In this document: positions 1 through 11,098 of the stretch, in pieces
How the letters are laid out: each line of letters opens with the position of its first letter
How positions within the stretch are numbered: the stretch's first letter is position 1
DNA from: a virus
Reading direction: 5' to 3' (one strand)
Length of the DNA stretch: 11,098 nt
Virus genome (UHGV): UHGV-0320970
Program-made: the position numbers and the translations under genes
Notes under the pieces: generated by a model
Seen by the model: the letters and a program-made list of their open reading frames with translations, nothing else
Told to the model about the DNA's origin: nothing
Database searches by the model: none

Positions 1-54
1 TGGGTACCTCCGTAAACTGACCCTGTAGAATCAGTTGTGCCAGTTGTTCATCTG

Positions 55-362
55 TTAGATTGAGTACGTGAGGAGCCCCTTCCGAAATGCACTTTCCTCA
101 GTAGCGGTTATATTTTCACGTTCATTTTTTGCGTATGCATATACGAAAAAGGCCCTTGTGCCGACGCGATAGAAAATGATTGTGCGATAACCGCCAGATT
201 TGCCGCCACCGACTCGTGGCAGACGTTGCTTGATAACGCCGTTACCCAGGTTTGCTGAGATAAGCCCGTTATCAGCCTGTTTAACAATTTCGCGCAGTGA
301 TTGGTCGGATATTTTGTTTTGCGTGCAAGTCGCTCAAACCAGGCGTTTTTAAAAATGCGCAT
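55..362 (-). pseudogene. RelE/ParE-superfamily (HigB-like) type II toxin, disrupted by a single-nucleotide frameshift in an A-run
   Basis: Minus-strand ATG at 360-362 gives MRIFKNAWFERLARK; after the A-run (plus coords ~312-320) the reading continues in another frame as ISDQSLREIVKQADNGLISANLGNGVIKQRLPRVGGGKSGGYRTIIFYRVGTRAFFVYAYAKNERENI... to TAA (55-57). The GKSGGYR ... FFxYAxAKNE pattern is typical of this toxin family. No single frame spans the gene; the track ORF 108..425 is the wrong-frame continuation. Confidence 0.5.
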
Positions 363-384
363 TTTTTGTTCCGTTATTAATGTA

Positions 385-399
385 TAACACATAGTGTTA
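385..399. promoter_or_regulatory. Perfect 6-3-6 inverted repeat TAACAC-ATA-GTGTTA just upstream of the toxin start; candidate operator
   Basis: Palindrome read directly from the sequence, 23 bp upstream of the minus-strand toxin ATG. TA operons are commonly autoregulated at such palindromes. Confidence 0.3.
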
Positions 400-428
400 C
401 ATTGCGTAGGGATCTGCAATGCCATCAG

Positions 429-459
429 TTTGACAACGTCGCGTGTTCGGGGCTATATT
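429..459 (+). promoter_or_regulatory. Candidate sigma70 promoter (TTGACA, ~19 bp spacer, TATATT) facing the nin-type operon
   Basis: Consensus -35 hexamer at 429-434 and -10-like hexamer at 454-459; the spacer is longer than optimal. Motif match only. Confidence 0.2.
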
Positions 460-704
460 CCTCACGCGCCAGCAAAACCTGGCGTCGGGATTAGCACCCC
501 GGATATCGAAACGGTGCATAACCGCGCTGGCGGTTTTTTTATGCGCTAAGCACAGTCACATTCGCGATTTATGGCGGGCTGTGTGGGGGAGCCGAAAGGC
601 TCGCCGGATGTTTCGACCGGTAGTGCTAACCCCGCACAGTTCGCCACCACGATGATTAGCACCTGACGGTGGCGAGGTAAAAATTATCGAAACGCGAGGT
701 CATT

Positions 705-1370
705 ATGGCTGTTCAAATTTCTGTCGAAAACCTTTCCCCTGTTACCTATAACCAGATCCCCGTAATTACTACTGAACTGTTGGCTCACCTTTACGGAACA
801 AAAATCAAAAACATTTCTGATAACTTTCTGAACAACACGACGCGATTCATGCCCGGAAAGCATTACTTTAAAATTGAAAAAAACGAATTACGCGAGTTTA
901 AGAACAGACCCGAAACAATCGGGTTAGTTGGTAAAAATGCCCGCTCCCTCATCCTCTGGACAGAACGCGGCGCAGCCCGTCACGCAAAAATGCTCGAAAC
1001 CGATCGGGCGTGGGAGGTATTCGAAAAACTGGAAGACTGCTATTTCAGCCAGGGAAAAACAGCACCAACCGAACAGCAGCCGCAGATTCAGCCACAATTC
1101 ACAGCCGAAGAAATCATCCTCCTTTGCTACATGCAGCTCTGGATGGAAAAAGCCCAGGACCTCAGCAAACACCTGTATCCCATTATGAAAGAGCTGAACT
1201 CCTCATACACGAACAAGCTGTATGACATTGCGTTTGAGACCATCTACATGGTGACGAAGAACAGAGACGCGCTACTAAGGGAGGTAACACGTCTCGACAT
1301 GTCAAGTTCCGTTATCCAGCGGGCCATGCCAATGCTGAAAAGCCTGCGGGCAAGACAATTTGAATTCTGA
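705..1370 (+). CDS. Phage antirepressor/regulatory-like protein (ORF6N / KilA-N / Roi-like N-terminal DNA-binding domain), 221 aa
   Basis: Long ORF with SD GAGGT 5 nt upstream of the ATG. The N-terminal ~110 aa (VITTELLAHLYGTKIKNISDNFLNN...KNELREF) resembles the N-domain of phage antirepressor-type proteins. It sits immediately upstream of ninB, as in lambdoid nin regions. Family assignment is from recall. Confidence 0.75.
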   Translation: MAVQISVENLSPVTYNQIPVITTELLAHLYGTKIKNISDNFLNNTTRFMPGKHYFKIEKNELREFKNRPETIGLVGKNARSLILWTERGAARHAKMLETDRAWEVFEKLEDCYFSQGKTAPTEQQPQIQPQFTAEEIILLCYMQLWMEKAQDLSKHLYPIMKELNSSYTNKLYDIAFETIYMVTKNRDALLREVTRLDMSSSVIQRAMPMLKSLRARQFEF

Positions 1371-1375
1371 AACTA

Positions 1376-1397
1376 AAGGAGCTTCGGCTCCTTTTTT
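1376..1397 (+). terminator. Intrinsic terminator (AAGGAGC-TTCG-GCTCCTT followed by a T-run), tR2-like position upstream of ninB
   Basis: 7-bp GC-containing stem, 4-nt loop and T6 tail, starting 6 nt after the stop codon of the preceding gene. Confidence 0.6.
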
Positions 1398-1424
1398 GTT
1401 GGGAAAATCCAGTGAGAGGGAATA

Positions 1425-1835
1425 ATGAACCAGACTATCTTCCTCCGAAGTAAACAGCAGCAACAATTCGCCATTAACGCCATCCTTGCAACAACTCTCG
1501 ATAAAGACAAACCCGTTACGATCCGCATCACCGATTACAAGCGGAATCTCGATCAAAATGCCAAATTTCACGCGATGGTCGCTGATATCTCCCGACAGGT
1601 TCAGTGGTGCGGCAGATGGCTAAAACCAGAACAGTGGAAAGTTTTGTTAATCAGCGGTCATGCCGTGGCTACAAAACAGGAAGCTGATGTTTTGCCAGGT
1701 CTTGAAGGTGAATACGTCAATATCCGCGAAAGCAGTGCGCAGATGAGCGTGAAGCGTATGGCAAGCCTGATTGAGTACACAACTTCCTGGGCTGTGGAGC
1801 AGGGTGTCAGATTTACCGACAGGAGGTATGAATGA
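1425..1835 (+). CDS. ninB: NinB-like recombination protein (136 aa)
   Basis: Translation ...[38 protein letters not shown]... aligns by eye with lambda NinB (...RNRSLDQNRKLWACLGDVSRQVEWHGRWL...). SD GAGGG upstream; the stop overlaps the next start. Confidence 0.9.
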
Positions 1836-2023
1836 GACGACAGCGACGAAGCATTACCGATATAGTCTGTGAAAACTGCAATTACCTTCCAACGAAACGC
1901 TCCCGAAATAAACCCAGGCCAATCCCCAACGAATCTGATGTAAAAACCTTCAATTATACGTCTCACCTGTGGGATGTCCGGTGGCTCAGACGTCGTGCAA
2001 GATTTAATAGTCACTCCGGATAG
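1832..2023 (+). CDS. ninE: NinE-like protein (63 aa)
   Basis: [56 protein letters not shown] matches the lambdoid NinE family. The start overlaps the ninB stop (ATGA), the canonical gene order. Confidence 0.85.
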
Positions 2024-2043
2024 TTCAATGTACGAGGAATAAG

Positions 2044-2337
2044 ATGATGGCAAACCTACGCAAAGAAGCGCGTGGCAGAGAATGTCAGGTACGGATTTAC
2101 GGCGTATGCAATGGCAATCCTGAAACTACAGTTTTGGCGCATTACCGAATAGCTGGAATTTGCGGAACGGGAATGAAGCCAGATGACCTGTTGGCTGCAT
2201 GGGCCTGTAGTGACTGCCATAATGAAATCGATCGCCGTACTCGCATTCTCGACAACAACGACGCCAGACTTTACCACCTGGAAGGCGTGATCAGGACGCA
2301 GGCGATATTGCTGAAGGAGGGGAAGATTAAGTCATGA
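2044..2337 (+). CDS. ybcO: YbcO-like DUF1364 protein (Cys/His-rich putative nuclease), 97 aa
   Basis: ARGRECQVRIYGVCNGNPETTVLAH...CSDCHNEIDRR pattern matches the DLP12 YbcO family. Tandem ATGs at 2044 and 2047; the stop overlaps the rusA start. Confidence 0.8.
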   Translation: MMANLRKEARGRECQVRIYGVCNGNPETTVLAHYRIAGICGTGMKPDDLLAAWACSDCHNEIDRRTRILDNNDARLYHLEGVIRTQAILLKEGKIKS

Positions 2338-2696
2338 ATGAATATGAGTTTGTGCTTCCCTGGCCGCCGACGGTGAATACCTACTGGCGAAGACGGGGAA
2401 GCCAGTACTACATCAGCGATAAAGTCCAGAAATACCGAAAAGACGTACAGCAAATCATCCGGCAACTCAGATTAGACATTTTCACTAAATCACGACTTCG
2501 CATCACAATTATTGCTGAACCACCAGACTCCCGCCGTCGCGACCTCGATAACATCCTGAAAGGTTTACTCGACTCTCTTATCCACGCCGGATTTGCGGAA
2601 GACGACGAGCAATTCGATGACATTCGCGTAATTCGCGGCGTGAAAGTGCCTGGCGGTAGAGTGGGGATAAAAATCACCGAACTGGAGAACATTTGA
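2334..2696 (+). CDS. rusA: RusA Holliday-junction resolvase (120 aa)
   Basis: MNEYEFVLPWPPTVNTYW...RRRDLDNILKGLLDSL...DDEQFDDIRV closely parallels E. coli RusA, including the acidic catalytic region. Start overlaps the ybcO stop (ATGA). Confidence 0.92.
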   Translation: MNEYEFVLPWPPTVNTYWRRRGSQYYISDKVQKYRKDVQQIIRQLRLDIFTKSRLRITIIAEPPDSRRRDLDNILKGLLDSLIHAGFAEDDEQFDDIRVIRGVKVPGGRVGIKITELENI

Positions 2697-2890
2697 TGAA
2701 TGCTAAAATTCAAACGATACCTGAATTACTGATCTGCACCAGGGGAAATCAGACAGAAGTCGCCAGAATACTGAACTGCAATCGTGCTACAGTCAGAAAA
2801 TACATTGATGATAAAGATGCGAAAAAGCACGCCGTCGTCAATGGCGTCCTTATGGTTCATCGCGGATGGGGTAAAGATACTGATGCGTGA
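2696..2890 (+). CDS. ninH: NinH-like protein (64 aa)
   Basis: ...[52 protein letters not shown] resembles lambda NinH (HTH-like). The ATG at 2696 overlaps the rusA stop; the track start at 2693 is a TTG three nt upstream. Confidence 0.85.
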
Positions 2891-3263
2891 TATCCGGCAG
2901 GTTCTTGAGCGCTGGGGGGCATGGGCGGTAAATAACTATGAGGATGTTACATGGTCGCCCATTGCTGCCGGATTTAAGGGACTGATCCCCGAAAAAGTAA
3001 AATCACGTCCACAGTGCTGTGACGATGATGCGATGGTGATATGCGGGTGCATAGCCCGCCTTTACCGGAACAATCGCGATCTGCATGACTTGCTGGTTGA
3101 TTACTACGTGTTGGGGGAGACGTTCATGGCGCTGGCACGTAAGCATGGATGCTCTGATGGAACTATCGGTAAAAAATTACAGAAAGCGGAGGGCGTGGTT
3201 GAAGGGATGTTAATGTTACTTGGTGTCAGACTGGAAATGGACCGATATGCGCAACGCCTCTGA
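2883..3263 (+). CDS. Q: Late-gene antiterminator Q, short phage-82 / QuuD-like type (126 aa)
   Basis: The track ORF starts at 2784, but that portion overlaps ninH out of frame. The ATG at 2883 overlaps the ninH stop (ATGCGTGA) and gives [24 protein letters not shown]...[12 protein letters not shown]...[10 protein letters not shown], which matches short Q antiterminators. Last gene of the nin operon, as expected. Confidence 0.85.
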
Positions 3264-3302
3264 CAGGAGGCGTTTGCCGTTCACTATGTGAAGTGTGTCA
3301 AT

Positions 3303-3332
3303 TTGTGAGCGTTATGCTGTTTACTTTATAGT
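3303..3332 (+). promoter_or_regulatory. Candidate late promoter pR' / qut region (TTGTGA, 18 bp, TATAGT)
   Basis: Sits in the 131-bp gap directly downstream of Q, where lambdoid phages carry pR' and the Q-utilisation site. Hexamer match only; the exact promoter is not certain. Confidence 0.3.
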
Positions 3333-3394
3333 ACAGGGACGTAAGAGTTATCTACCTGTTAATAACATATATACAACAATGAACAGGGGGCAAA

Positions 3395-3988
3395 ATGGAC
3401 ATTGAAGATTTTCTGGAGGCGGAAGACAATGATCTGTCTCTGTGGAATGATGATATTTTAAGCATTGACTGGTTCGTTATCCTCAAAGAGCTTTTGAAAT
3501 ACCAGAACAGGTTAAAGTTAAACTATTCAGAATTACTTCTGCTGGCTAATTTTGTTTCATTTCACCAGGACGTAGATTCGCAAACATTACCATCAATATC
3601 TCTTTTTGCCACCAGAATGCGTGCATCTCGTGCCATTATAGAAGAAGGCTTTCAACGCCTGGAGGAGAAAGGGATGTTGCAGAAGATAAGTTATGCTCAA
3701 ATCGGTCATGATTATGATTTGCGGAACGTTTATGACATCAAGCCATTAATTCGTAAGTTAATTGAGGTGCTGAAAACCGAGTATGATAAAAAGCACACTT
3801 GCCCCCTCTGCGGCAAAATAGCTGTCTCTGATGAGGAAATTGAGAAAAAATTCGGATTCAGAATTTGCGGGAATAAGAAAAGGCCGCAAAGCTGGTGCCG
3901 TTCATGCAGAAGCACGAAACAACGCAGACTGAATTCATCGCTAATTGGCAAAAAAAAGCCCCGAAAATCTCCGCCCGAGGTGGTGTGA
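3395..3988 (+). CDS. Moron-like hypothetical protein, 197 aa: acidic N-terminus, winged-helix-like core, C-terminal zinc-ribbon-like motif and basic tail
   Basis: Strong SD AGGGGG 6 nt before the ATG. Visibly more AT-rich than the nin genes. Core ...RASRAIIEEGFQRLEEKGMLQKI... resembles a winged-helix recognition region. C-terminus has CPLCG ... CRSCR and a Lys/Arg-rich tail. I recognise no family. Confidence 0.7.
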   Translation: MDIEDFLEAEDNDLSLWNDDILSIDWFVILKELLKYQNRLKLNYSELLLLANFVSFHQDVDSQTLPSISLFATRMRASRAIIEEGFQRLEEKGMLQKISYAQIGHDYDLRNVYDIKPLIRKLIEVLKTEYDKKHTCPLCGKIAVSDEEIEKKFGFRICGNKKRPQSWCRSCRSTKQRRLNSSLIGKKKPRKSPPEVV

Positions 3989-4101
3989 AGCGTCGCGGAA
4001 CCCCGGATTCCACTCACGATTGAACGAGGTGCTAAAAAGTATTTTACGTACGTAAAAATCTGCATATCATGATAAGAGTGGTTACATTGCCACGCTGCTT
4101 A

Positions 4102-4126
4102 ACCCGCCGATGCGCGGGTTTTTTTG
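4102..4126 (+). terminator. Intrinsic terminator (ACCCGC-CGATGC-GCGGGT followed by a T-run)
   Basis: GC-rich 6-bp stem followed by T7, about 110 nt downstream of the moron gene stop. Candidate tR'-equivalent or moron terminator. Confidence 0.6.
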
Positions 4127-4305
4127 TACCCAGAATCCTGTGAGCTATACGGAAAGTACACAGAAAGGAAGGTACGACCGCAATTAATAACAAAATCTTA
4201 AAAATCTCATATGGCACTATTAGTTTTCTAAATATTGTATATTTTAAGTATTGCAGGATAACCCTGTAACGAAGTTTGCGTAACAGCATTTTGCTCTACG
4301 AGTTT

Positions 4306-4336
4306 GCCAGCCTCCCCTGGTGGCTGGCTTTTTTTG
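4306..4336 (+). terminator. Intrinsic terminator (GCCAGCC-TCCCCTGGT-GGCTGGC followed by a T-run)
   Basis: Perfect 7-bp GC-rich stem, 9-nt loop and T7 tail. Confidence 0.65.
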
Positions 4337-4421
4337 TATCCGTTCAACGGGAATGTTACATACCTCACAATTAAGTCAGTTGAATGTTGTCTGCCCGGAT
4401 GAGAATTTGTTAGAAAAAACT

Positions 4422-4450
4422 GCATGGTGAATCCCCCTGAGCGGAGGGGC
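4422..4450. repeat. Outer inverted repeat P1 (29 bp), left copy
   Basis: GCATGGTGAATCCCCCTGAGCGGAGGGGC; its reverse complement recurs at 4817-4845 with one mismatch. Confidence 0.85.
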
Positions 4451-4520
4451 GACTGGTGACGGTATAATCTCTGATTATCAAAACGAGAATGACGCGGGTT
4501 TAGTGGCACCGGGCTGAACT

Positions 4521-4575
4521 CACCGGGAGGCACCCGGCACCATGCAATGGCACATAGCGCCACTCTCCAGCCCCT
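4521..4575. repeat. Repeat unit 'a' (55 bp), left arm of a perfect inverted repeat
   Basis: CACCGGGAGGCACCCGGCACCATGCAATGGCACATAGCGCCACTCTCCAGCCCCT; exact reverse complement at 4708-4762 (55/55). Confidence 0.95.
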
Positions 4576-4707
4576 CTCCGGAGGGGCTTTCTTATGGACA
4601 AAAAAGCCCGCGCTGGGAGACGCGGGCGGCAAGGAATAAACAATAAAACGTGAAGTAATATTTCAGCTGGCGAATAATACCCCATAGTAATCACTCTGCG
4701 CAACTGC
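4576..4707. repeat. Spacer S (132 bp) enclosed by the 'a' inverted repeat; contains convergent terminator-like hairpins
   Basis: Plus-strand hairpin GCCCCTC-TCCG-GAGGGGC followed by TTTCTT at the a/S boundary. Minus-strand hairpin GCCCGCG...CGCGGGC followed by a T-run (plus coords ~4600-4627). A near-identical copy of S lies at 10917-11049. Confidence 0.85.
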
Positions 4708-4762
4708 AGGGGCTGGAGAGTGGCGCTATGTGCCATTGCATGGTGCCGGGTGCCTCCCGGTG
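4708..4762. repeat. Repeat unit a' (inverted copy of 'a')
   Basis: Exact reverse complement of 4521-4575. Confidence 0.95.
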
Positions 4763-4816
4763 AATTCAGTACCAGCACCTGAATCCGCGATTATCCCATA
4801 TACCTACTCGCTGATT

Positions 4817-4845
4817 GCCCCTCCGCACAGGGGGATTCACCATGC
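4817..4845. repeat. Outer inverted repeat P1', right copy
   Basis: Reverse complement of 4422-4450 with a single mismatch. Confidence 0.85.
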
Positions 4846-4891
4846 CAGTTTCTTTTAACAAACTCCCCGCAAACCAGACAACAGTCAACCG

Positions 4892-4946
4892 CCGGCACCA
4901 TGCAATGGCACATAGCGCCACTCTCCAGCCCCTCTCCGGAGGGGCT
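4892..4946. repeat. Third copy of the 'a' unit, direct orientation
   Basis: 55/55 identical to 4534-4588 (CCGGCACCATGCAATGGCACATAGCGCCACTCTCCAGCCCCTCTCCGGAGGGGCT); flanks differ. Confidence 0.9.
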
Positions 4947-4981
4947 GTTTATATTGATTTTGTCAGATGTGAGTAAACTCC

Positions 4982-5317
4982 TTATGGACTTTGTTGTTTT
5001 AGCCCATAAGGACATATTTGCAGAGTGCAACGGTTATTAAAGCATTCATTCAATACGTTATCTGTATTTGTAGGGCATTCCTGGCTGTTTTTGATTAAAT
5101 TCCAGAATGTTTTATTGAATGGTACTACGTTGTAAATGGTTACAGGTAGCACTTTGTTATTGAGCATGATGCCTGTGTGAGTCAGTGTAAATATACTTTC
5201 AGGAGGTAAGAAAGCATCCGATTGATACCAGATTATTAATTTTATTTTACTCCATATGACTGAAAAAGATATTCCGCATGATGGCTGGATAACTGTATCA
5301 ATCACAATCCACTTCAT
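4982..5317 (-). CDS. Hypothetical protein (111 aa) in an AT-rich island, orientation opposite to neighbours
   Basis: ORF with plausible SD AAGGAA 6 nt upstream of the ATG on the minus strand. Very AT-rich and similar to nothing I recognise; could be a spurious ORF. Confidence 0.3.
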
Positions 5318-5577
5318 TTAGTTTCCTTGTTTATGCCTTGCTGGTGATGTTCTGAAAAGTATAAATGATATTTTTGATTGTAAACCATAGAGCAGAATTA
5401 TTTTTCTGATGTTGTTTATTGTTTATTTAAATGCAGGGTGGTTTATATCTCGTCTTGTAGTTTATCCATGCATATCTGCTTGATGATGAGGTTTTTATTT
5501 AAGGTATGGTTTTGTGTTTTTTCTGTATTACATGTCAGGTATTTTAAAGAATCATTTTTCAGATGGTGGAAAGAACC

Positions 5578-7521
5578 ATGGCATTTAAACACTATGATGT
5601 TGTCAGGGCGGCGTCGCCGTCAGATCTTGCGGAAAAGCTGACACATAAACTGAAAGAGGGCTGGCAGCCGTTTGGCAGTCCTGTGGCTATCACGCCTTAT
5701 ACACTGATGCAGGCCATTGCCGCAGAGGGTGATGTGACCACGCCTGTGGTTGTGCCCGACACAGGGGCTGGTGGCTCTCCGGGAGTGGCTACCACTGAAC
5801 CGGAGTATTACTACGTTATTCCCCTGGCCGGGCAGTCGAACGGTATGGCCTATGGTGAGGGGCTTCCTCTGCCGGAGACCTATGATCGCCCTGACTCCCG
5901 TATTAAGCAGCTGGCCCGTCGCAGCACTGTGACGCCGGGTGGTGATACCTGTGCATACAATGACGTTATTCCGGCAGACCACTGTCTGCATGATGTTCAG
6001 GACATGAGCGCACTTAACCATCCTCATGCAGACCTGAGTAAGGGCCAGTACGGGACTGTCGGTCAGGGGCTGCATATTGCCAAAAAACTGCTGCCTTATA
6101 TCCCGCAGAATGCCGGGATTCTTCTGGTGCCCTGTTGCCGTGGCGGGTCTGGTTTAACCGTGGGTAATGACGGCACGTTCAGCGAAACGTCTGGTGCATC
6201 GGCAAATTCAGCCCGCTGGGGAGTGGGTAAACCGCTGTATCAGGATTTTCTCTTCCGTACAAAAGCGGCGCTGTCGAAGAACCCGAAAAACAGGCTTCTG
6301 GCCGTGGTATGGATGCAGGGGGAAAATGATCTTGCGGACGGCAGTCAGCAGCACAGCGGCCTGTTTACCACTATGGTGCAGCAGTTCAGGGCTGATATGG
6401 CTGCATATTCTGCACAGTGTGTTGGCGGAAGTGCTGGCTCGGTGCCGTGGATTTGTGGTGACACCACGTATTACTGGAAGAATCTTAACGCCGATAAATA
6501 TGAGGCGGTATATGGCGGTTACAAGGGCAGGGAAGCACAGAATATTTTCTTTGTACCGTTCCTGACGGATGAGAATGGACAGAGCACGCCAACGAATGCT
6601 CCGGCGGAAGACCCGGATATTGTGGCTGTCGGGTATTACGGTGCAGCATCCCGAACCCAGGGCAGTTTTGTTTCGACACAGCGTGACAGCCATTTCAGCT
6701 CATGGGCACGCAGGGGCGTCATTTCAGACCGTCTGGCCTCAGCTATTATGCTCCATGCAGGGCGCACGGCTGAATTGATGCGCGGGCAGACCGTGACACC
6801 ACCGGATGAGAAGCCGTCACCTGATACACCATCAAAACCGTCCACGCCACCCGCAGACACCACGACGATGAGTACGCTATTTGCTTACCGGGCATCTGAG
6901 TCTGAAGGACGGTTGACACCACAGGGTTGGGCTGCTGGAGGTGGCAAGGCTCAAATCGTGGATGATGCCGGAGCCAGCGGGGGTAAGGCAATGAAACTGA
7001 CCAAGGAAACAGGAAGAGCCCCCTGGTACCTTGAGCATGATGCTGGTAATGGTGCGGACCTGCTGGGTAAAGGTGGTCTTGTCAGTTGTCGTTTTAAACT
7101 CGATGGCGCGCTTACGGCTAATCAGTACGCACTGGCGCTGTACTGGCCGGTTTCTTCATTGCCTCAGGGTGTCACACTGGAAGGTAATGCCGGTAACAAT
7201 CTGCTGGCGTCGTTTTACGTACAGAGCGATGCCACAGACCTCAACGTGATGTACCACAAGGGTAACGCTGACCAGAACACGAAGCTGGGGTCATTCGGCG
7301 CATTTGACAACGAATGGCATACGCTGGGTTTCCGTTTTGCCGGTAATAACAGCATTCAGGTGACGCCGGTGATTGATGGTCAGGATGGTGCACCGTTCAT
7401 GCTGTCGCAGTCTCCGGTAGGTTCTTTTGCGGCAGACAAATTACGTGTAACGGATATCACAAAAGCGGCGACGTATACGGTGCTGATTGAAAGTATAACA
7501 GTGGAAGTGAATAACCCGTAA
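5578..7521 (+). CDS. nanS-p: Prophage NanS-p-type sialate O-acetylesterase (N-terminal DUF1737-like domain, SGNH/SASA esterase core, C-terminal putative carbohydrate-binding domain), 647 aa
   Basis: The paralogue starts MAFKHYDVV, so the ATG at 5578 is preferred over the track start at 5563. Core contains YYYVIPLAGQSNGMAYGEG (GQSN nucleophile motif) and CGDTTYYW. Located in the post-Q slot where lambdoid and Stx prophages carry nanS-p. Confidence 0.88.
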   Translation: MAFKHYDVVRAASPSDLAEKLTHKLKEGWQPFGSPVAITPYTLMQAIAAEGDVTTPVVVPDTGAGGSPGVATTEPEYYYVIPLAGQSNGMAYGEGLPLPETYDRPDSRIKQLARRSTVTPGGDTCAYNDVIPADHCLHDVQDMSALNHPHADLSKGQYGTVGQGLHIAKKLLPYIPQNAGILLVPCCRGGSGLTVGNDGTFSETSGASANSARWGVGKPLYQDFLFRTKAALSKNPKNRLLAVVWMQGENDLADGSQQHSGLFTTMVQQFRADMAAYSAQCVGGSAGSVPWICGDTTYYWKNLNADKYEAVYGGYKGREAQNIFFVPFLTDENGQSTPTNAPAEDPDIVAVGYYGAASRTQGSFVSTQRDSHFSSWARRGVISDRLASAIMLHAGRTAELMRGQTVTPPDEKPSPDTPSKPSTPPADTTTMSTLFAYRASESEGRLTPQGWAAGGGKAQIVDDAGASGGKAMKLTKETGRAPWYLEHDAGNGADLLGKGGLVSCRFKLDGALTANQYALALYWPVSSLPQGVTLEGNAGNNLLASFYVQSDATDLNVMYHKGNADQNTKLGSFGAFDNEWHTLGFRFAGNNSIQVTPVIDGQDGAPFMLSQSPVGSFAADKLRVTDITKAATYTVLIESITVEVNNP

Positions 7522-7669
7522 GCAGGAAAAAAAGACCGCCGTGGCAGGGAAAACAAGGAGCCAGAACCGGCGGCAGAAGTCGCTACATCCTTAGCAAAAA
7601 TATGCTGAGCAAAAAATGCAGGAGTTTTTTACTGGCAGGCATTGACCATGTCAATAATGGAGATGAATA

Positions 7670-7852
7670 ATGACATTTTTACAGCTGATTATGTTGTATT
7701 TCTGTACAGCAGTTTGTGTGCTGTATCTTCTTTCTGGTGGGTACAGAGTCGTGAGAGATTTCTGGCGCAGACAGATTGACAAAAGGGCCGCTGAGAAAAT
7801 CAGTGCCAGTCAGTCAGCCGGAACAAAACCCGAAGAGCCTCTCATTCCGTAG
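7670..7852 (+). CDS. Small single-pass membrane protein (60 aa), paralogue of 8424..8606
   Basis: MTFLQLIMLYFCTAVCVLYLLSGGY is a hydrophobic helix, followed by a charged tail. SD GGAG upstream. A diverged copy is conserved on the opposite arm. Confidence 0.6.
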   Translation: MTFLQLIMLYFCTAVCVLYLLSGGYRVVRDFWRRQIDKRAAEKISASQSAGTKPEEPLIP

Positions 7853-7889
7853 CAACTTTCTTAACAACACCTTTCAACGAGAAAATACC

Positions 7890-8414
7890 ATGTCAGAAAT
7901 AAAATCGCTGGTCACTGCTGAAGCAGTGAAGGAAGTCCTGCGCTCTGAAGAAGTCAGAAGCGCACTGAAACAGCAACTTCGGCAGAACCTTGAGGCGCGT
8001 CTTGATGCAGAAGTGGATGCCATTCTGGATGAACTGCTGGGCGCACCGACTGTTCCGGAGCCGGAAGGCATTGCGTACCCCGTCTCCCGCAATCCGGAAG
8101 CTCACAACAATATAAAGACCACCGGCACACACCGATGGTCCCTTGCGCATGCTTACATCATCATGTCGCTGTCAGGTGTAGGTTCACCGCCATCTGAAGC
8201 ACTCCCGTCACCCGCGATACCTTCCGGCTCAGGAACCGCTGCTACGCCCAGCAGCTCATCCAGAATGGCATCCACTTCTGCATCAAGACGCGACTCAAGA
8301 TTCTGGCGAAGTTTCTGTTTCAGTGCGCTCCGGACCTCTTCAGAGCGCAGGACTTCCTTCACTGCCTCTGCAGTGACCAGGGATGTGATTTCTGACATGG
8401 GATTTTCTCGCTGA
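7890..8414 (+). CDS. 81-aa-family acidic helical protein, plus-arm copy; homology ends near 8078 and the ORF then reads through the palindrome centre antisense to the other copy (possibly truncated or fused)
   Basis: MSEIKSLVTAEAVKEVLRSEEVRSALKQQLRQNLEARLDAEVDAILDELLG...PEPEGIA matches the minus-arm copy for 63 aa, then diverges with no nearby stop. Confidence 0.45.
   Translation: MSEIKSLVTAEAVKEVLRSEEVRSALKQQLRQNLEARLDAEVDAILDELLGAPTVPEPEGIAYPVSRNPEAHNNIKTTGTHRWSLAHAYIIMSLSGVGSPPSEALPSPAIPSGSGTAATPSSSSRMASTSASRRDSRFWRSFCFSALRTSSERRTSFTASAVTRDVISDMGFSR
8153..8398 (-). CDS. 81-aa acidic helical protein, minus-arm copy (apparently intact)
   Basis: MSEITSLVTAEAVKEVLRSEEVRSALKQKLRQNLESRLDAEVDAILDELLG...PEPEGIAGDGSASDGGEPTPDSDMMM with its own stop at 8153-8155. 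Confidence 0.6.
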   Translation of the reverse strand: MSEITSLVTAEAVKEVLRSEEVRSALKQKLRQNLESRLDAEVDAILDELLGVAAVPEPEGIAGDGSASDGGEPTPDSDMMM

Positions 8415-8423
8415 AAGGGGTTG

Positions 8424-8606
8424 TTAAGGAGTAACGGGTTCTTCGGGTTTGCTTCCGGCTGACTGACTGGCGCTGATTTTCTCAGCGGCCCTTTTATCAA
8501 TCTGCCTGCACCAGAAATCGCGCACAGCCCTGTACCCACCCGAAAGAAGATACAGCACACAGACCGCCGTACAGAAGTACAGCATCACCTGATGAATAAA
8601 TGTCAT
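8424..8606 (-). CDS. Small single-pass membrane protein (60 aa), paralogue of 7670..7852
   Basis: MTFIHQVMLYFCTAVCVLYLLSGGYRAVRDFWCRQIDKRAAEKISASQSAGSKPEEPVTP; diverged from the plus-arm copy at several positions, so not a recent exact duplicate. Confidence 0.6.
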   Translation of the reverse strand: MTFIHQVMLYFCTAVCVLYLLSGGYRAVRDFWCRQIDKRAAEKISASQSAGSKPEEPVTP

Positions 8607-8745
8607 AATTTCTTACCGTTATGGTTGACAATGAGAATTGTTTTCATTTAAAAAACCAATGTACGAAAGCATCTTTTCTTTACATTCTCCATTGGGATTA
8701 CCTCCGCCAGCTTCCATTCCTGCCGCTGGCGGCTTTTTTTAGCAA

Positions 8746-10656
8746 TTATGCGGCTGCTCCAGCTTTGTTTGCTTTAACTTCCACCGTATCAATAAGTACA
8801 GGGTAGGTTTCTGCACTACCTGTAATATCCGTAATGACAAACCTGTTGAGTCCATTAGCAGTATTGGCCCATTTCACCAGGTCAAACGCCTGTCCATCCA
8901 CACCATCGAGCACCGGAGTAACATTAATGCTGTTACTGCCCTTAAATTTAAATGCAAGCGTATGCCAGTCATGGTCGAATGCGCCAAACGTGCCAAGTTC
9001 TTTTTGTTGATTAACTGTATGATGGTATGCAACATTAATACTGGCTTTATCTGTCTGGACAAAGAAAGAACTCAGATGGCCTTCACCACCCTCACCCGGC
9101 CATTCCGCTATTCGCCAGTACAAACCAAAGGCATACTTGTTTCTGGTTGTCTCAAGATTGACGTTTTCGGGGATTTTAAACCGGACAGCAATTTCCCCGC
9201 CTTTTTCCAGTAAAAGTTTTGCCTTGTCTGCAGCAATATCACAGTACATTGACCAGGATTTCGCGCTGTTATTTTTCTCAATTCGCAGAGCTTTATTGCC
9301 GCTGTCATCAACCAGTGTGCGTCTGCCATACATACCGTCCCAGCCATAAGGTTTCAGCTGATTGTCTGTAGCTTTTTTGGCATCGTAAAAAATTACAGAC
9401 TCTGAGGTGGTAACCGGCCTGTCTGGAACAACCACCCCGGCAGTACCATTAACAAACGCAGAAGACTTACCCGCGCAGCTCAGAATCGCCGTTGCCAGAC
9501 GGTCGGAAATAATCCCACGGCGAGCCCATGAACTGAAATGGCTCGCCCTGTCCTGTGACGTCCAGGTGGCTGAGCTGTCACGCCATTTCGAACCGTAATA
9601 ACCGATACCCGGAATGTCCGGGTCTTCTTCCGGTTTGTTCGTCGGCACATTCACCCCGTTCTCATCGGTCATGAACGGTACGAAATGGATATTCTTTTCC
9701 GTTTTATTTTTATAGCTGCCGTACACCGTCTGGTACGTGGATTCGTTCTTCTGCTTCCAGAAATACGTCGTGTCCCCGCATATCCAGGGAACACCGCCAG
9801 CAGAGCCACCGACGCACTGGCCTGCCATATCCGCCAGGTCTGCACGGAATTTATCAACCAGCGCACCAAACTGTGCGGCATGATTTGCCGGCGTACCGCC
9901 AAAATCAAATTCCCCCTGCATCCACACCACGGCAAACAGCACATTTTTCGGGTTCTTCTCCAGTGCCGCTTTTGTTCGACCGATAAGGTCCTTATACAGC
10001 GGCTTGTCCACACCCCAGCGGGTTGAATTCTCCGAGGCACCACTCGCGTCACTGTATGTGCCATCAGCTCCGGTGGTGAACGCTGAACCACCACGACAGC
10101 ACGGAACCAGCAGAATGCCCGCATTCGCCGGTATAAACGGCAGCAGTTTTTTGGCGATATGCAGCCCCTGCCCCACGGTTCCGTACTGCCCCTTTGACAG
10201 GTCCGCTTTCGGATGGTTAAGACGGCTCATGTCCTGCACATCATGCAGACAATGGTCCGCCGGAATGATGTCGTTATATTTGCATGCTGCACCGCCCGGT
10301 GTCACCGTACTGCGACGCGCTAACTGTTTAATACGTGGATCAGGGCTGTCGAATGTATCCGGTAATGGCAGTCCCTCACCGTATGACATACCATTGGACT
10401 GACCAGCAAGCGCGATCACATAGTAATATTCTGGCGCAACAGAAGGCGCTGAGGTCGTCGGACGGTTGCCTGGCTCCTCTGGTGATGAGATGCTCCCCTC
10501 ACTCACAACTGGCTGGATGAACTCCGCACCATAACCAGCTGTCGAAATCAGCGCACTACCATAAGGCTGCCACCCTTCCTTCAGTTTTTGAGTTATTCGT
10601 TTCGCAAGGTCTGACGGCGACGCCGCCCTGACAACATCATAGTGTTTAAATGCCAT
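8746..10656 (-). CDS. nanS-p: Second, diverged NanS-p-type sialate O-acetylesterase (636 aa)
   Basis: MAFKHYDVVRAASPSDLA..., YYYVIALAGQSNGMSYGEG, CGDTTYFW. Strong SD GGGAGG 5 nt upstream on the minus strand. Same three-domain layout as 5578..7521 but with many substitutions, especially in the linker and C-terminal domain. Confidence 0.9.
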   Translation of the reverse strand: MAFKHYDVVRAASPSDLAKRITQKLKEGWQPYGSALISTAGYGAEFIQPVVSEGSISSPEEPGNRPTTSAPSVAPEYYYVIALAGQSNGMSYGEGLPLPDTFDSPDPRIKQLARRSTVTPGGAACKYNDIIPADHCLHDVQDMSRLNHPKADLSKGQYGTVGQGLHIAKKLLPFIPANAGILLVPCCRGGSAFTTGADGTYSDASGASENSTRWGVDKPLYKDLIGRTKAALEKNPKNVLFAVVWMQGEFDFGGTPANHAAQFGALVDKFRADLADMAGQCVGGSAGGVPWICGDTTYFWKQKNESTYQTVYGSYKNKTEKNIHFVPFMTDENGVNVPTNKPEEDPDIPGIGYYGSKWRDSSATWTSQDRASHFSSWARRGIISDRLATAILSCAGKSSAFVNGTAGVVVPDRPVTTSESVIFYDAKKATDNQLKPYGWDGMYGRRTLVDDSGNKALRIEKNNSAKSWSMYCDIAADKAKLLLEKGGEIAVRFKIPENVNLETTRNKYAFGLYWRIAEWPGEGGEGHLSSFFVQTDKASINVAYHHTVNQQKELGTFGAFDHDWHTLAFKFKGSNSINVTPVLDGVDGQAFDLVKWANTANGLNRFVITDITGSAETYPVLIDTVEVKANKAGAAA

Positions 10657-10720
10657 GAATCCTCCCGGCCGGGATAATATTGTGAGTAAAATAAGGAGCG
10701 GGCTGAAGTCCGGAAGTTAC

Positions 10721-10838
10721 AGGACAATGGCAGAAGGGAGACTACAGCCCGCAATTCGAAAAAGGTCGCGCAGTTGCGCAGAGTGATTACTATGGGGTAT
10801 TATTCGCCAGCTGAAATATTACTTCACGTTTTATTGTT
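10721..10838. repeat. Left arm of the terminal palindrome (118 bp)
   Basis: Reverse complement of 10981-11098, checked by eye over both ends. Its inner ~70 bp is the reverse complement of the right part of spacer S. Confidence 0.85.
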
Positions 10839-10916
10839 GATTCAGGTGCTGGTACTGAATTCACCGGGAGGCACCCGGCACCATGCAATGGCACATAGCG
10901 CCACTCTCCAGCCCCT
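10839..10916. repeat. 78-bp block identical to the reverse complement of 4708-4785 (flank R0 plus unit 'a')
   Basis: GATTCAGGTGCTGGTACTGAATT followed by the 55-bp 'a' unit; exact match to the reverse complement of the locus-1 a'+flank. Confidence 0.9.
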
Positions 10917-11049
10917 CTCCGGAGGGGCTTTCTTGTGGGCAAAAAAAGCCCGCGCTGGGAGACGCGGGCGGCAAGGAATAAACAATAAAACGTGAAGTAA
11001 TATTTCAGCTGGCGAATAATACCCCATAGTAATCACTCTGCGCAACTGC
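10917..11049. repeat. Second copy of spacer S, same plus-strand orientation as 4576-4707
   Basis: Near-identical to 4576-4707 apart from an extra A in the A-run and two substitutions (CTTATGGACA vs CTTGTGGGCA). Confidence 0.9.
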
Positions 11050-11098
11050 GCGACCTTTTTCGAATTGCGGGCTGTAGTCTCCCTTCTGCCATTGTCCT
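10981..11098. repeat. Right arm of the terminal palindrome, running to the window edge
   Basis: Reverse complement of 10721-10838; the palindrome may continue beyond the window. Confidence 0.85.

Follow-up and report, generated by a model that had tools for sequence, protein, structure and literature searches.

Two facing nanS-p modules in virus genome UHGV-0320970: a strand-alternating mosaic of three lambdoid prophage types and its probable chimeric origin

Introduction

In lambdoid prophages, those of the Stx type among them, the late region has the order Q, late leader, (stx), nanS-p, DUF1378, DUF826 and holin S (PMC10462455). The present study concerns UHGV virus genome UHGV-0320970, a stretch of 11,098 nucleotides (nt), referred to here as the window, in which two nanS-p/DUF1378/DUF826 modules face each other on opposite strands. 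The window is a five-piece mosaic of three types of lambdoid prophage (A, B and C), along which the strand alternates and is switched four times. It is probably a zig-zag chimera, generated either by inverted chimeras of the type formed during multiple displacement amplification (MDA) or by mis-assembly, and it would then correspond to no structure of a bacterial chromosome. A preliminary description of the same DNA had proposed a tail-to-tail fusion of two lambdoid late regions by recombination or deletion between oppositely oriented prophages, with the caveat that a chimeric assembly at the centre must be excluded.

Homologous exchange between prophages gives rise to hybrids that are colinear and whose crossover lies within sequence common to both parents, and also to chromosomal inversions in Escherichia coli. 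Inverted rearrangements with multiple template switches are known from human genomic disorders and from the tandem-inversion-duplications (TIDs) of Salmonella, the latter reportedly the work of Kugelberg, Roth and colleagues. Chimeras formed during MDA are intramolecular, join positions a few hundred nt apart and are inverted in more than 85% of cases; at more than 70% of the chimeric junctions there is microhomology, which ranges from 2 to 21 nt and peaks near 6 nt (Lasken & Stockwell 2007, PMC1855051; Tu et al. 2015, PMC4595205). Inverted mis-assemblies, with a node looped back the wrong way, are a result of MDA chimeras (bioRxiv 10.64898/2026.06.11.730069). The formation of chimeras from similar molecules during library preparation has likewise been described (PMC10908179).

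Two facing nanS-p modules

Inverted homology between the two modules is genuine and far beyond chance. ORF listing and repeat finding placed a plus-strand module at 5563-8075 opposite a diverged minus-strand copy at 8153-10656. Three stretches of the arms can be aligned, namely 5577-6750 with 10657-9481 (69% identity over 1191 nt), 7294-7388 with 8988-8894 (74%) and 7666-8075 with 8610-8213 (84% over 410 nt), and the region 7660-8615 folds as single-stranded DNA into a long hairpin (-384 kcal/mol, z = -55). The two NanS-p proteins (652 and 636 aa), both of which contain DUF1737, SASA and DUF6645 in the Pfam annotation of the collection records of the exact proteins, are 54% identical. The DUF1378 membrane proteins (60 aa each) are 85% identical, and the DUF826 proteins are 90% identical over their first 62 residues. 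The arms are diverged paralogues, and the preliminary description was right to see an inverted duplication that is neither a recent exact copy nor a simple mirror made by the assembler.

A centre of about 130 bp had been placed at 8079-8209. Such a centre exists, and its limits are corrected here to 8076-8212 (137 nt). It consists of the last 19 codons and the stop codon of the right-arm DUF826 gene, a 76-nt intergenic region and the first base of the holin ATG; comparison with natural prophages thus identifies it as surplus 3' sequence of the right-arm unit and not as a separate element. The 81-aa gene had been assigned to both arms, but it is intact on the right arm only. Its counterpart on the left arm, which encodes 89 aa in the parent prophage, is cut here after residue 62 (..PEPEGIA) and continues into 112 antisense codons. 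The resulting fusion ORF of 174 aa (7890-8414) was looked up in a collection with two alternative starts, and no record of it was found there.

As had been noticed before, the holin, endolysin, Rz and morphogenesis genes are absent from the window, and a single nt of the holin gene is kept by the right arm. On neither arm is the expected same-strand order of DUF1378, DUF826, holin and lysis genes found, although DUF1378 and DUF826 are present. Upstream of the left arm lie Q and the late leader S_A of the A type, with an inverted leader copy interposed at 4708-4891. Upstream of nanS-p on the right arm, 182 nt of native sequence are retained (113 nt followed by 69 nt of the spacer loop_A), and no leader reads into this arm.

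Segments of the window and their parent prophages

The segment map (Table 1) was built by BLAST against relatives followed by base-by-base extension. Every segment is 98.5-100% identical to a natural, normally organized prophage. Prophages of the A, B and C types have a common layout of late leader (STnc100), nanS-p, DUF1378, DUF826 and holin. In the A type (L001, L007 and L008), Q is followed by a 197-aa DnaD_N protein, the late leader, nanS-p 636, DUF1378, DUF826, holin, lysozyme, Rz and P22-like morphogenesis genes. In the B type (L002 and L017), the order is Q (DUF1133), a methylase, tRNAs, the late leader, an IraM-like gene, nanS-p 652, DUF1378, DUF826, holin and lysis genes; in L002, the holin, lysozyme and Rz genes come next as normal. 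Strain 23CRST047 contains both A- and B-type prophages at separate loci. The search for two parental prophages suggested in the preliminary description led to natural parents, although these are of three types and not two.

Table 1. Segments, junctions and annotated features of the 11,098-nt window. Coordinates are those of the window unless a relative is named.
Feature	Coordinates	Strand	Remarks
Seg1	1-4707	+	A-type lambdoid/P22-like prophage; L008 5181-9887, 99.96% (2 mismatches in 4707 nt); L001, 99.93%
Seg2	4708-4891	-	B/C-type late leader, STnc100 copy; L002 2968->2785 and L017, 100%; points back toward Q
Seg3 (left arm)	4892-8075	+	B-type late module; L002 (JGI contig) 2927-6110, 100% over 3184 nt; L017, 2 mismatches
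Seg4 (right arm)	8076-10838	-	A-type late module; L008 12581->9819, 99.96% (1 mismatch in 2763 nt)
Seg5	10839-11098	+	C-type late leader; E. coli 55989, 100% covered at 98.5%, single piece
J1	4707/4708		A(+) L001 13472 -> S core(-) L002 2968 (= 13340); fold-back, spacer 132 nt, microhomology 0 nt
J2	4891/4892		B(-) 2785 -> B(+) 2927; intramolecular fold-back, spacer 142 nt, microhomology 2 nt (CC)
J3 (central)	8075/8076		B(+) 6110 -> (-) A 16166 = B 6270; spacer 137 nt (A) / 160 nt (B), microhomology 0 nt
J4	10838/10839		A(-) 13399 -> B/C-like S element(+) L002 2891 (~13263); spacer 136-142 nt, microhomology 0 nt
RelE-like toxin	108-425	-	Seg1
C4/isrK RNAs	453-651		Seg1; Rfam
ORF6N antirepressor-like gene	705-1370		Seg1
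ninB	1425-1835		Seg1
ninE	1832-2023		Seg1
DUF1364/YbcO	2044-2337		Seg1
rusA	2334-2696		Seg1
ninH	2693-2890		Seg1
Q	2883-3263		Seg1
DnaD_N protein, 197 aa	3395-3988		Seg1
STnc100 late leader S_A	4394-4599		Seg1; then loop_A spacer to 4707
STnc100 Rfam match	4698-4874	-	Seg2
tR' hairpin	4926-4947		Seg3
IraM/PmrD-like gene, 111 aa	4982-5317	-	Seg3
nanS-p, 652 aa	5563-7521	+	Seg3
DUF1378 membrane protein, 60 aa	7670-7852	+	Seg3
DUF826, cut after codon 62	7890-8075	+	Seg3
Holin ATG (1 nt) and 76-nt intergenic region	8076-8152		Seg4
DUF826, 81 aa	8153-8398	-	Seg4
DUF1378, 60 aa	8424-8606	-	Seg4
nanS-p, 636 aa	8746-10656	-	Seg4; upstream 113 nt native and 69 nt loop_A
STnc100 copy	10751-10940		Rfam

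Two pairs of segments are continuous in nature. Seg1 and the flipped Seg4 are contiguous in one prophage (L008 5181-12581, with 3 mismatches in 7.4 kb and a 69-nt overlap), and the reverse complement of Seg2 is contiguous with Seg3 in both L002 and L017. Seg5 has a B-like 5' part, a conserved core, a variant 3' end, loop_A and the region upstream of nanS-p, and it heads toward another forward nanS-p. Together with 10721-10838 it forms a perfect 118-nt inverted repeat that reaches the end of the window (hairpin fold, z = -28).

The exact NanS-p 652 was found on only four other contigs of a large collection, all of them with a normal context. The exact NanS-p 636 occurs in 413 blocks of the collection, and DUF1378, DUF826 and holin come next in 10 of the 10 places shown that extend past the gene. 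The two alleles are accordingly very unequal in abundance. In the natural contexts examined, the module always has holin and lysis genes next to it downstream on its own strand and never faces a second copy.

The preliminary description gave the duplication a span of 4521-10916. Both modules do lie inside this span, but its outer ends (4521-4785 and 10839-10916) are STnc100 late-leader copies, repeated directly and invertedly, and they hold three further strand switches besides the central one that had not been seen. The block 4708-10916 has perfect inverted repeats of 78 nt at its termini, 4708-4785 and 10839-10916, and a direct repeat of 195 nt flanks it at 4514-4707 and 10855-11049. Within the window, the three copies of loop_A are mutually identical, and so are the four copies of the leader core (S core).

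Geometry of the four junctions

All four junctions are local fold-backs onto the opposite strand with spacers of 132-160 nt, as measured with A and B coordinates on a common alignment. Laid over one generic late locus, the window runs forward, back for 184 nt, forward for 3.2 kb, back for 2.8 kb and forward again. J1 falls inside a small hairpin, TGCGCAACTGCGCG, on one side and within the tR' hairpin, in its 5' stem, on the opposite side. To the right of J3, the sequence starts with the opening base of the holin ATG; the 34 nt that follow J3 (8076-8109) are identical in the A and B types.

Exact repeats that the parents share can accommodate every change of parent. They are the leader core (69 nt), loop_A (108 nt, common to the A and C types) and a block of at least 89 nt, identical in A and B, that starts 34 nt upstream of the holin ATG. 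Because this last block is identical in both types, the 34 nt next to J3 might just as well derive from B. With the parent switches placed in the shared repeats, each fold-back therefore becomes intramolecular. An independent short-read metagenome contig (L004) has its position 1 at window 4892, that is at J2, the 5' edge of the leader core (CCGGCACCATGC...), and assemblies therefore appear to break naturally at the boundary of the leader-core repeat.

Junctions in sequence collections

Four queries of 181-401 nt, one per junction, were searched in 5,426 complete E. coli genomes, and no place in these genomes covered 80% or more of any of them. Each junction flank was present in about 2,800 of the complete genomes, mostly at 99% identity or higher. 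As a positive control, Seg5 (10839-11098), which is naturally contiguous, was covered to at least 80% in 983 complete genomes. In addition, the 30-mer across J3 was absent from genome_contigs, viral_contigs and metagenome_contigs. The other 30-mers were tested in one collection each; that of J1 was absent from metagenome_contigs, that of J2 from viral_contigs and that of J4 from genome_contigs. The J3 region had no match in the phage and plasmid collections, and the species-representative collections had no match to the junctions tested there.

Origin of the mosaic

A chimera made in vitro or by computation, rather than a rearrangement in vivo, is the explanation that we infer from these observations. 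The sample would have contained at least three ordinary lambdoid prophages, of the A, B and C types. The path along their common layout would run forward and turn back onto the opposite strand four times, and after each U-turn it could leave a short exact shared repeat on the branch of another prophage. Inverted chimeras with such a geometry are produced by strand-displacing amplification. If molecules of this kind were locally dominant, or if the assembler followed them where the true paths branch at repeats, a contig such as the window would result.

Several features agree with this origin. Adjacent segments lie on opposite strands of the same locus a short distance apart, and no junction was reproduced in independent assemblies within the collections searched. 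The spacer range is narrow across the four junctions and is therefore not what would be expected from independent chromosomal rearrangements. The duplicated copies are mutually identical, so that no time appears to have elapsed since the joins. Taken together, four fold-backs in 6.4 kb, narrow spacers, identical duplicates, allele changes in shared repeats and the lack of any recurrence are best fitted by a chimera. What the preliminary description had offered as a caveat has become the leading explanation.

Other observations weigh against a chimera. A few nt of microhomology would be anticipated at the sites of re-priming, and values of 0, 2, 0 and 0 nt are atypical for MDA. The artefact itself is deduced from the sequence. 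Four chimeric joins in one consensus require chimeric molecules that were locally dominant or an assembler that was permissive. The contig passes through repeats of up to 108 nt, which implies read threading, a large k or long reads, and random chimeras do not normally survive in a long-read assembly of good coverage. The 118-nt terminal inverted repeat could be taken as a k-1 signature (k = 119), but this is suggestive only, its arm length being set by the end of the window.

The best of the alternatives is a real and very recent complex rearrangement in one strain, which we regard as unlikely. Microhomology-mediated break-induced replication or fork stalling and template switching (MMBIR/FoSTeS), or a remodelled TID, would have gone back and forth over the late regions of co-resident prophages, leaving a quasi-palindromic pair of nanS-p genes with the lysis genes deleted or separated. 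The sequence is internally clean, its segments are nearly or fully identical to natural alleles, its duplicated stretches do not differ from each other, and strains with both A- and B-type prophages exist, as in 23CRST047. Moreover, the forward-inverted-forward order of the A-like parts resembles a TID or a duplication-inverted triplication-duplication (DUP-TRP/INV-DUP), and two junction sides fall within small hairpins, at which a polymerase could stall. The passage of the contig through repeats at which short-read graphs usually break would fit long-read support. Such a rearrangement, however, demands four illegitimate joins with 0-2 nt of microhomology within 6.4 kb and switching among three prophages that are normally hundreds of kb apart, and none of its junctions recurs in the complete genomes or the other collections. 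TID-type structures also triplicate one sequence, with the middle copy inverted. In the window, identical copies are restricted to 69-108 nt of loop_A and the leader core, and the gene modules represent distinct alleles, with protein identities of 54-90%. A TID within one prophage is rejected on the same ground. Furthermore, an A-type continuation past 11098 would give a kb-long perfect inverted repeat with a 142-nt spacer, and long palindromes are poorly tolerated in E. coli (SbcCD-dependent palindrome instability). A more specific form of this proposal, a single catastrophic replication event with four template switches, each about 140 nt back from the homologous position, across three co-resident lambdoid prophages, is rather improbable. 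It would have left the two diverged nanS-p modules, without lysis genes, in a quasi-palindromic array behind a single Q-dependent promoter, and it would be a bacterial counterpart, from prophage to prophage, of the multi-switch inverted rearrangements of human genomic disorders and Salmonella TIDs.

The tail-to-tail fusion put forward in the preliminary description, in which one deletion or recombination would have joined two complete, oppositely oriented lambdoid prophages, each arm keeping its own Q and late promoter, can be given very little credence. Two diverged nanS-p/DUF1378/DUF826 modules do converge on 8075/8076, and both are without lysis genes. However, neither arm is colinear outward into a prophage of its own. 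J4 cuts the right arm off after 2.76 kb. Beyond J4 lies forward late-leader DNA, and therefore no second Q or late promoter reads into the arm. L008 holds Seg1 and the flipped Seg4 as a single stretch; the left flank and the right arm are thus halves of one phage, not of two. Two more strand switches separate the left arm from the A-type Q region, and the central junction is without shared homology. Homologous recombination between prophages cannot have made any of the joins, because the strand switches lie outside homology (0-2 nt shared); at none of the four junctions was a crossover in shared sequence with a colinear product found.

Least credible of all is a programmed invertible segment or a transposon-like insertion of the block 4708-10916: the 78-nt terminal inverted repeats and the flanking 195-nt direct repeat are genuine, but they are the ubiquitous late-leader core and not element-specific ends, the window contains no invertase, transposase or integrase (all large ORFs being annotated phage genes), flipping the block would remove none of the four junctions, and no second instance was found in any collection searched.

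Simpler technical or structural causes were also considered. A mis-join of a de Bruijn graph at shared k-mers was rejected as the sole cause; the junctions share only 0-2 nt, and junction-spanning k-mers must therefore have been in the data. A hairpin walk through a natural inverted repeat was rejected, as the loop_A to reversed core adjacency that it requires occurs in no complete E. coli genome. Concatenation of read pairs (R1 with an un-flipped R2) would explain the zero microhomology and the tight spacers, but it gives one junction polarity and the window has both. For J1 and J4, a single inversion with staggered breaks pairs the breakpoints formally (74- and 78-nt inverted duplications), yet J2 and J3 would still be needed.

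Other features of the window and its relatives

The STnc100 copies sit where the Q-dependent pR'/leader/tR' belong. Each carries a TTGACT-like box 5' and a strong terminator hairpin (AGCCCCTCTCCGGAGGGGCT) 3', and STnc100 probably represents the transcript of the lambdoid late leader. In A-type prophages, the 197-aa DnaD_N protein, which has C-terminal CxxC...CxxC motifs, is encoded between Q and this leader. The IraM/PmrD-like anti-adapter gene lies just upstream of nanS-p 652 on the opposite strand and is conserved in B-type prophages. No tRNA genes were found within the window; in B- and C-type relatives, tRNA Ile/Arg/Arg genes lie immediately upstream.

At the left end of the window, a C4 antisense RNA, its a1/b1 targets and isrK are located directly upstream of the ORF6N/P22_AR_C antirepressor-like gene, an arrangement that constitutes a P1/P7-style antisense immunity cassette within a lambdoid prophage. 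The RelE/ParE-family toxin ORF lies at the very edge, and a helix-turn-helix antitoxin partner is present in L001 and L006-L015 just past the window start. In the closest relative among complete genomes, E. coli NMBU-W12E19, an IS66 element (L001 6237-8993) is inserted at the position of window 229-236 and truncates the RelE-like toxin gene, which is uninterrupted in the window. An 8-bp overlap of the alignment pieces at the IS66 site suggests a target duplication.

Implications

Most probably, no real genomic feature underlies the two-module window. As an artefact, it would be of practical use, showing how repeat-rich late regions of prophages can yield clean-looking 'palindromic remnants'. 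These could then be unmasked by mapping segments to natural relatives, by examining the geometry of strand switches and by searching the junctions in many genomes alongside a naturally contiguous control.

If the window is real, it would represent multi-template switching during replication among prophages that share one E. coli host, a route to prophage decay and to the juxtaposition of paralogues that is not described for lambdoid prophages. Two sialate O-acetylesterase alleles would then be present in one locus that has no lysis cassette. Q-modified transcription from the A-type late promoter would be expected to cross the leader copies, enter nanS-p 652, continue over DUF1378 and the DUF826 fusion and then run antisense across the inverted A module, with no lysis or morphogenesis genes following within the window. 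The inverted nanS-p 636 would be without a late promoter of its own.

Comparison with known systems

The window may be compared with four known systems. As in MDA inverted chimeras, one locus is joined in alternating orientation, intramolecularly and over a short distance (here 132-160 nt), several turns occur per molecule, and in the assembly a given piece overlaps its neighbours in both orientations, once in each. Unlike these chimeras, which typically have microhomology of 2-21 nt, the window shows 0-2 nt, and its segments are different prophage alleles, so that extra switches inside shared repeats are needed.

With TID and DUP-TRP/INV-DUP structures, the window has in common the forward-inverted-forward order, the joining of opposite strands at nearby positions and the identity of the duplicated stretches. 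It departs from them in that the 'copies' are different alleles (A, B and C), the junctions number four and not two, and quasi-palindromic homology at the junctions is essentially absent. Homologous recombination between prophages likewise involves several co-resident lambdoid prophages with shared blocks, whereas the joins of the window are strand switches outside homology. Lastly, each arm taken alone is an ordinary and widespread allele of the normal lambdoid Q-to-S late region, that of Stx-type prophages included (PMC10462455). Unlike that region, the module in the window faces a second copy and is not followed by holin and lysis genes.

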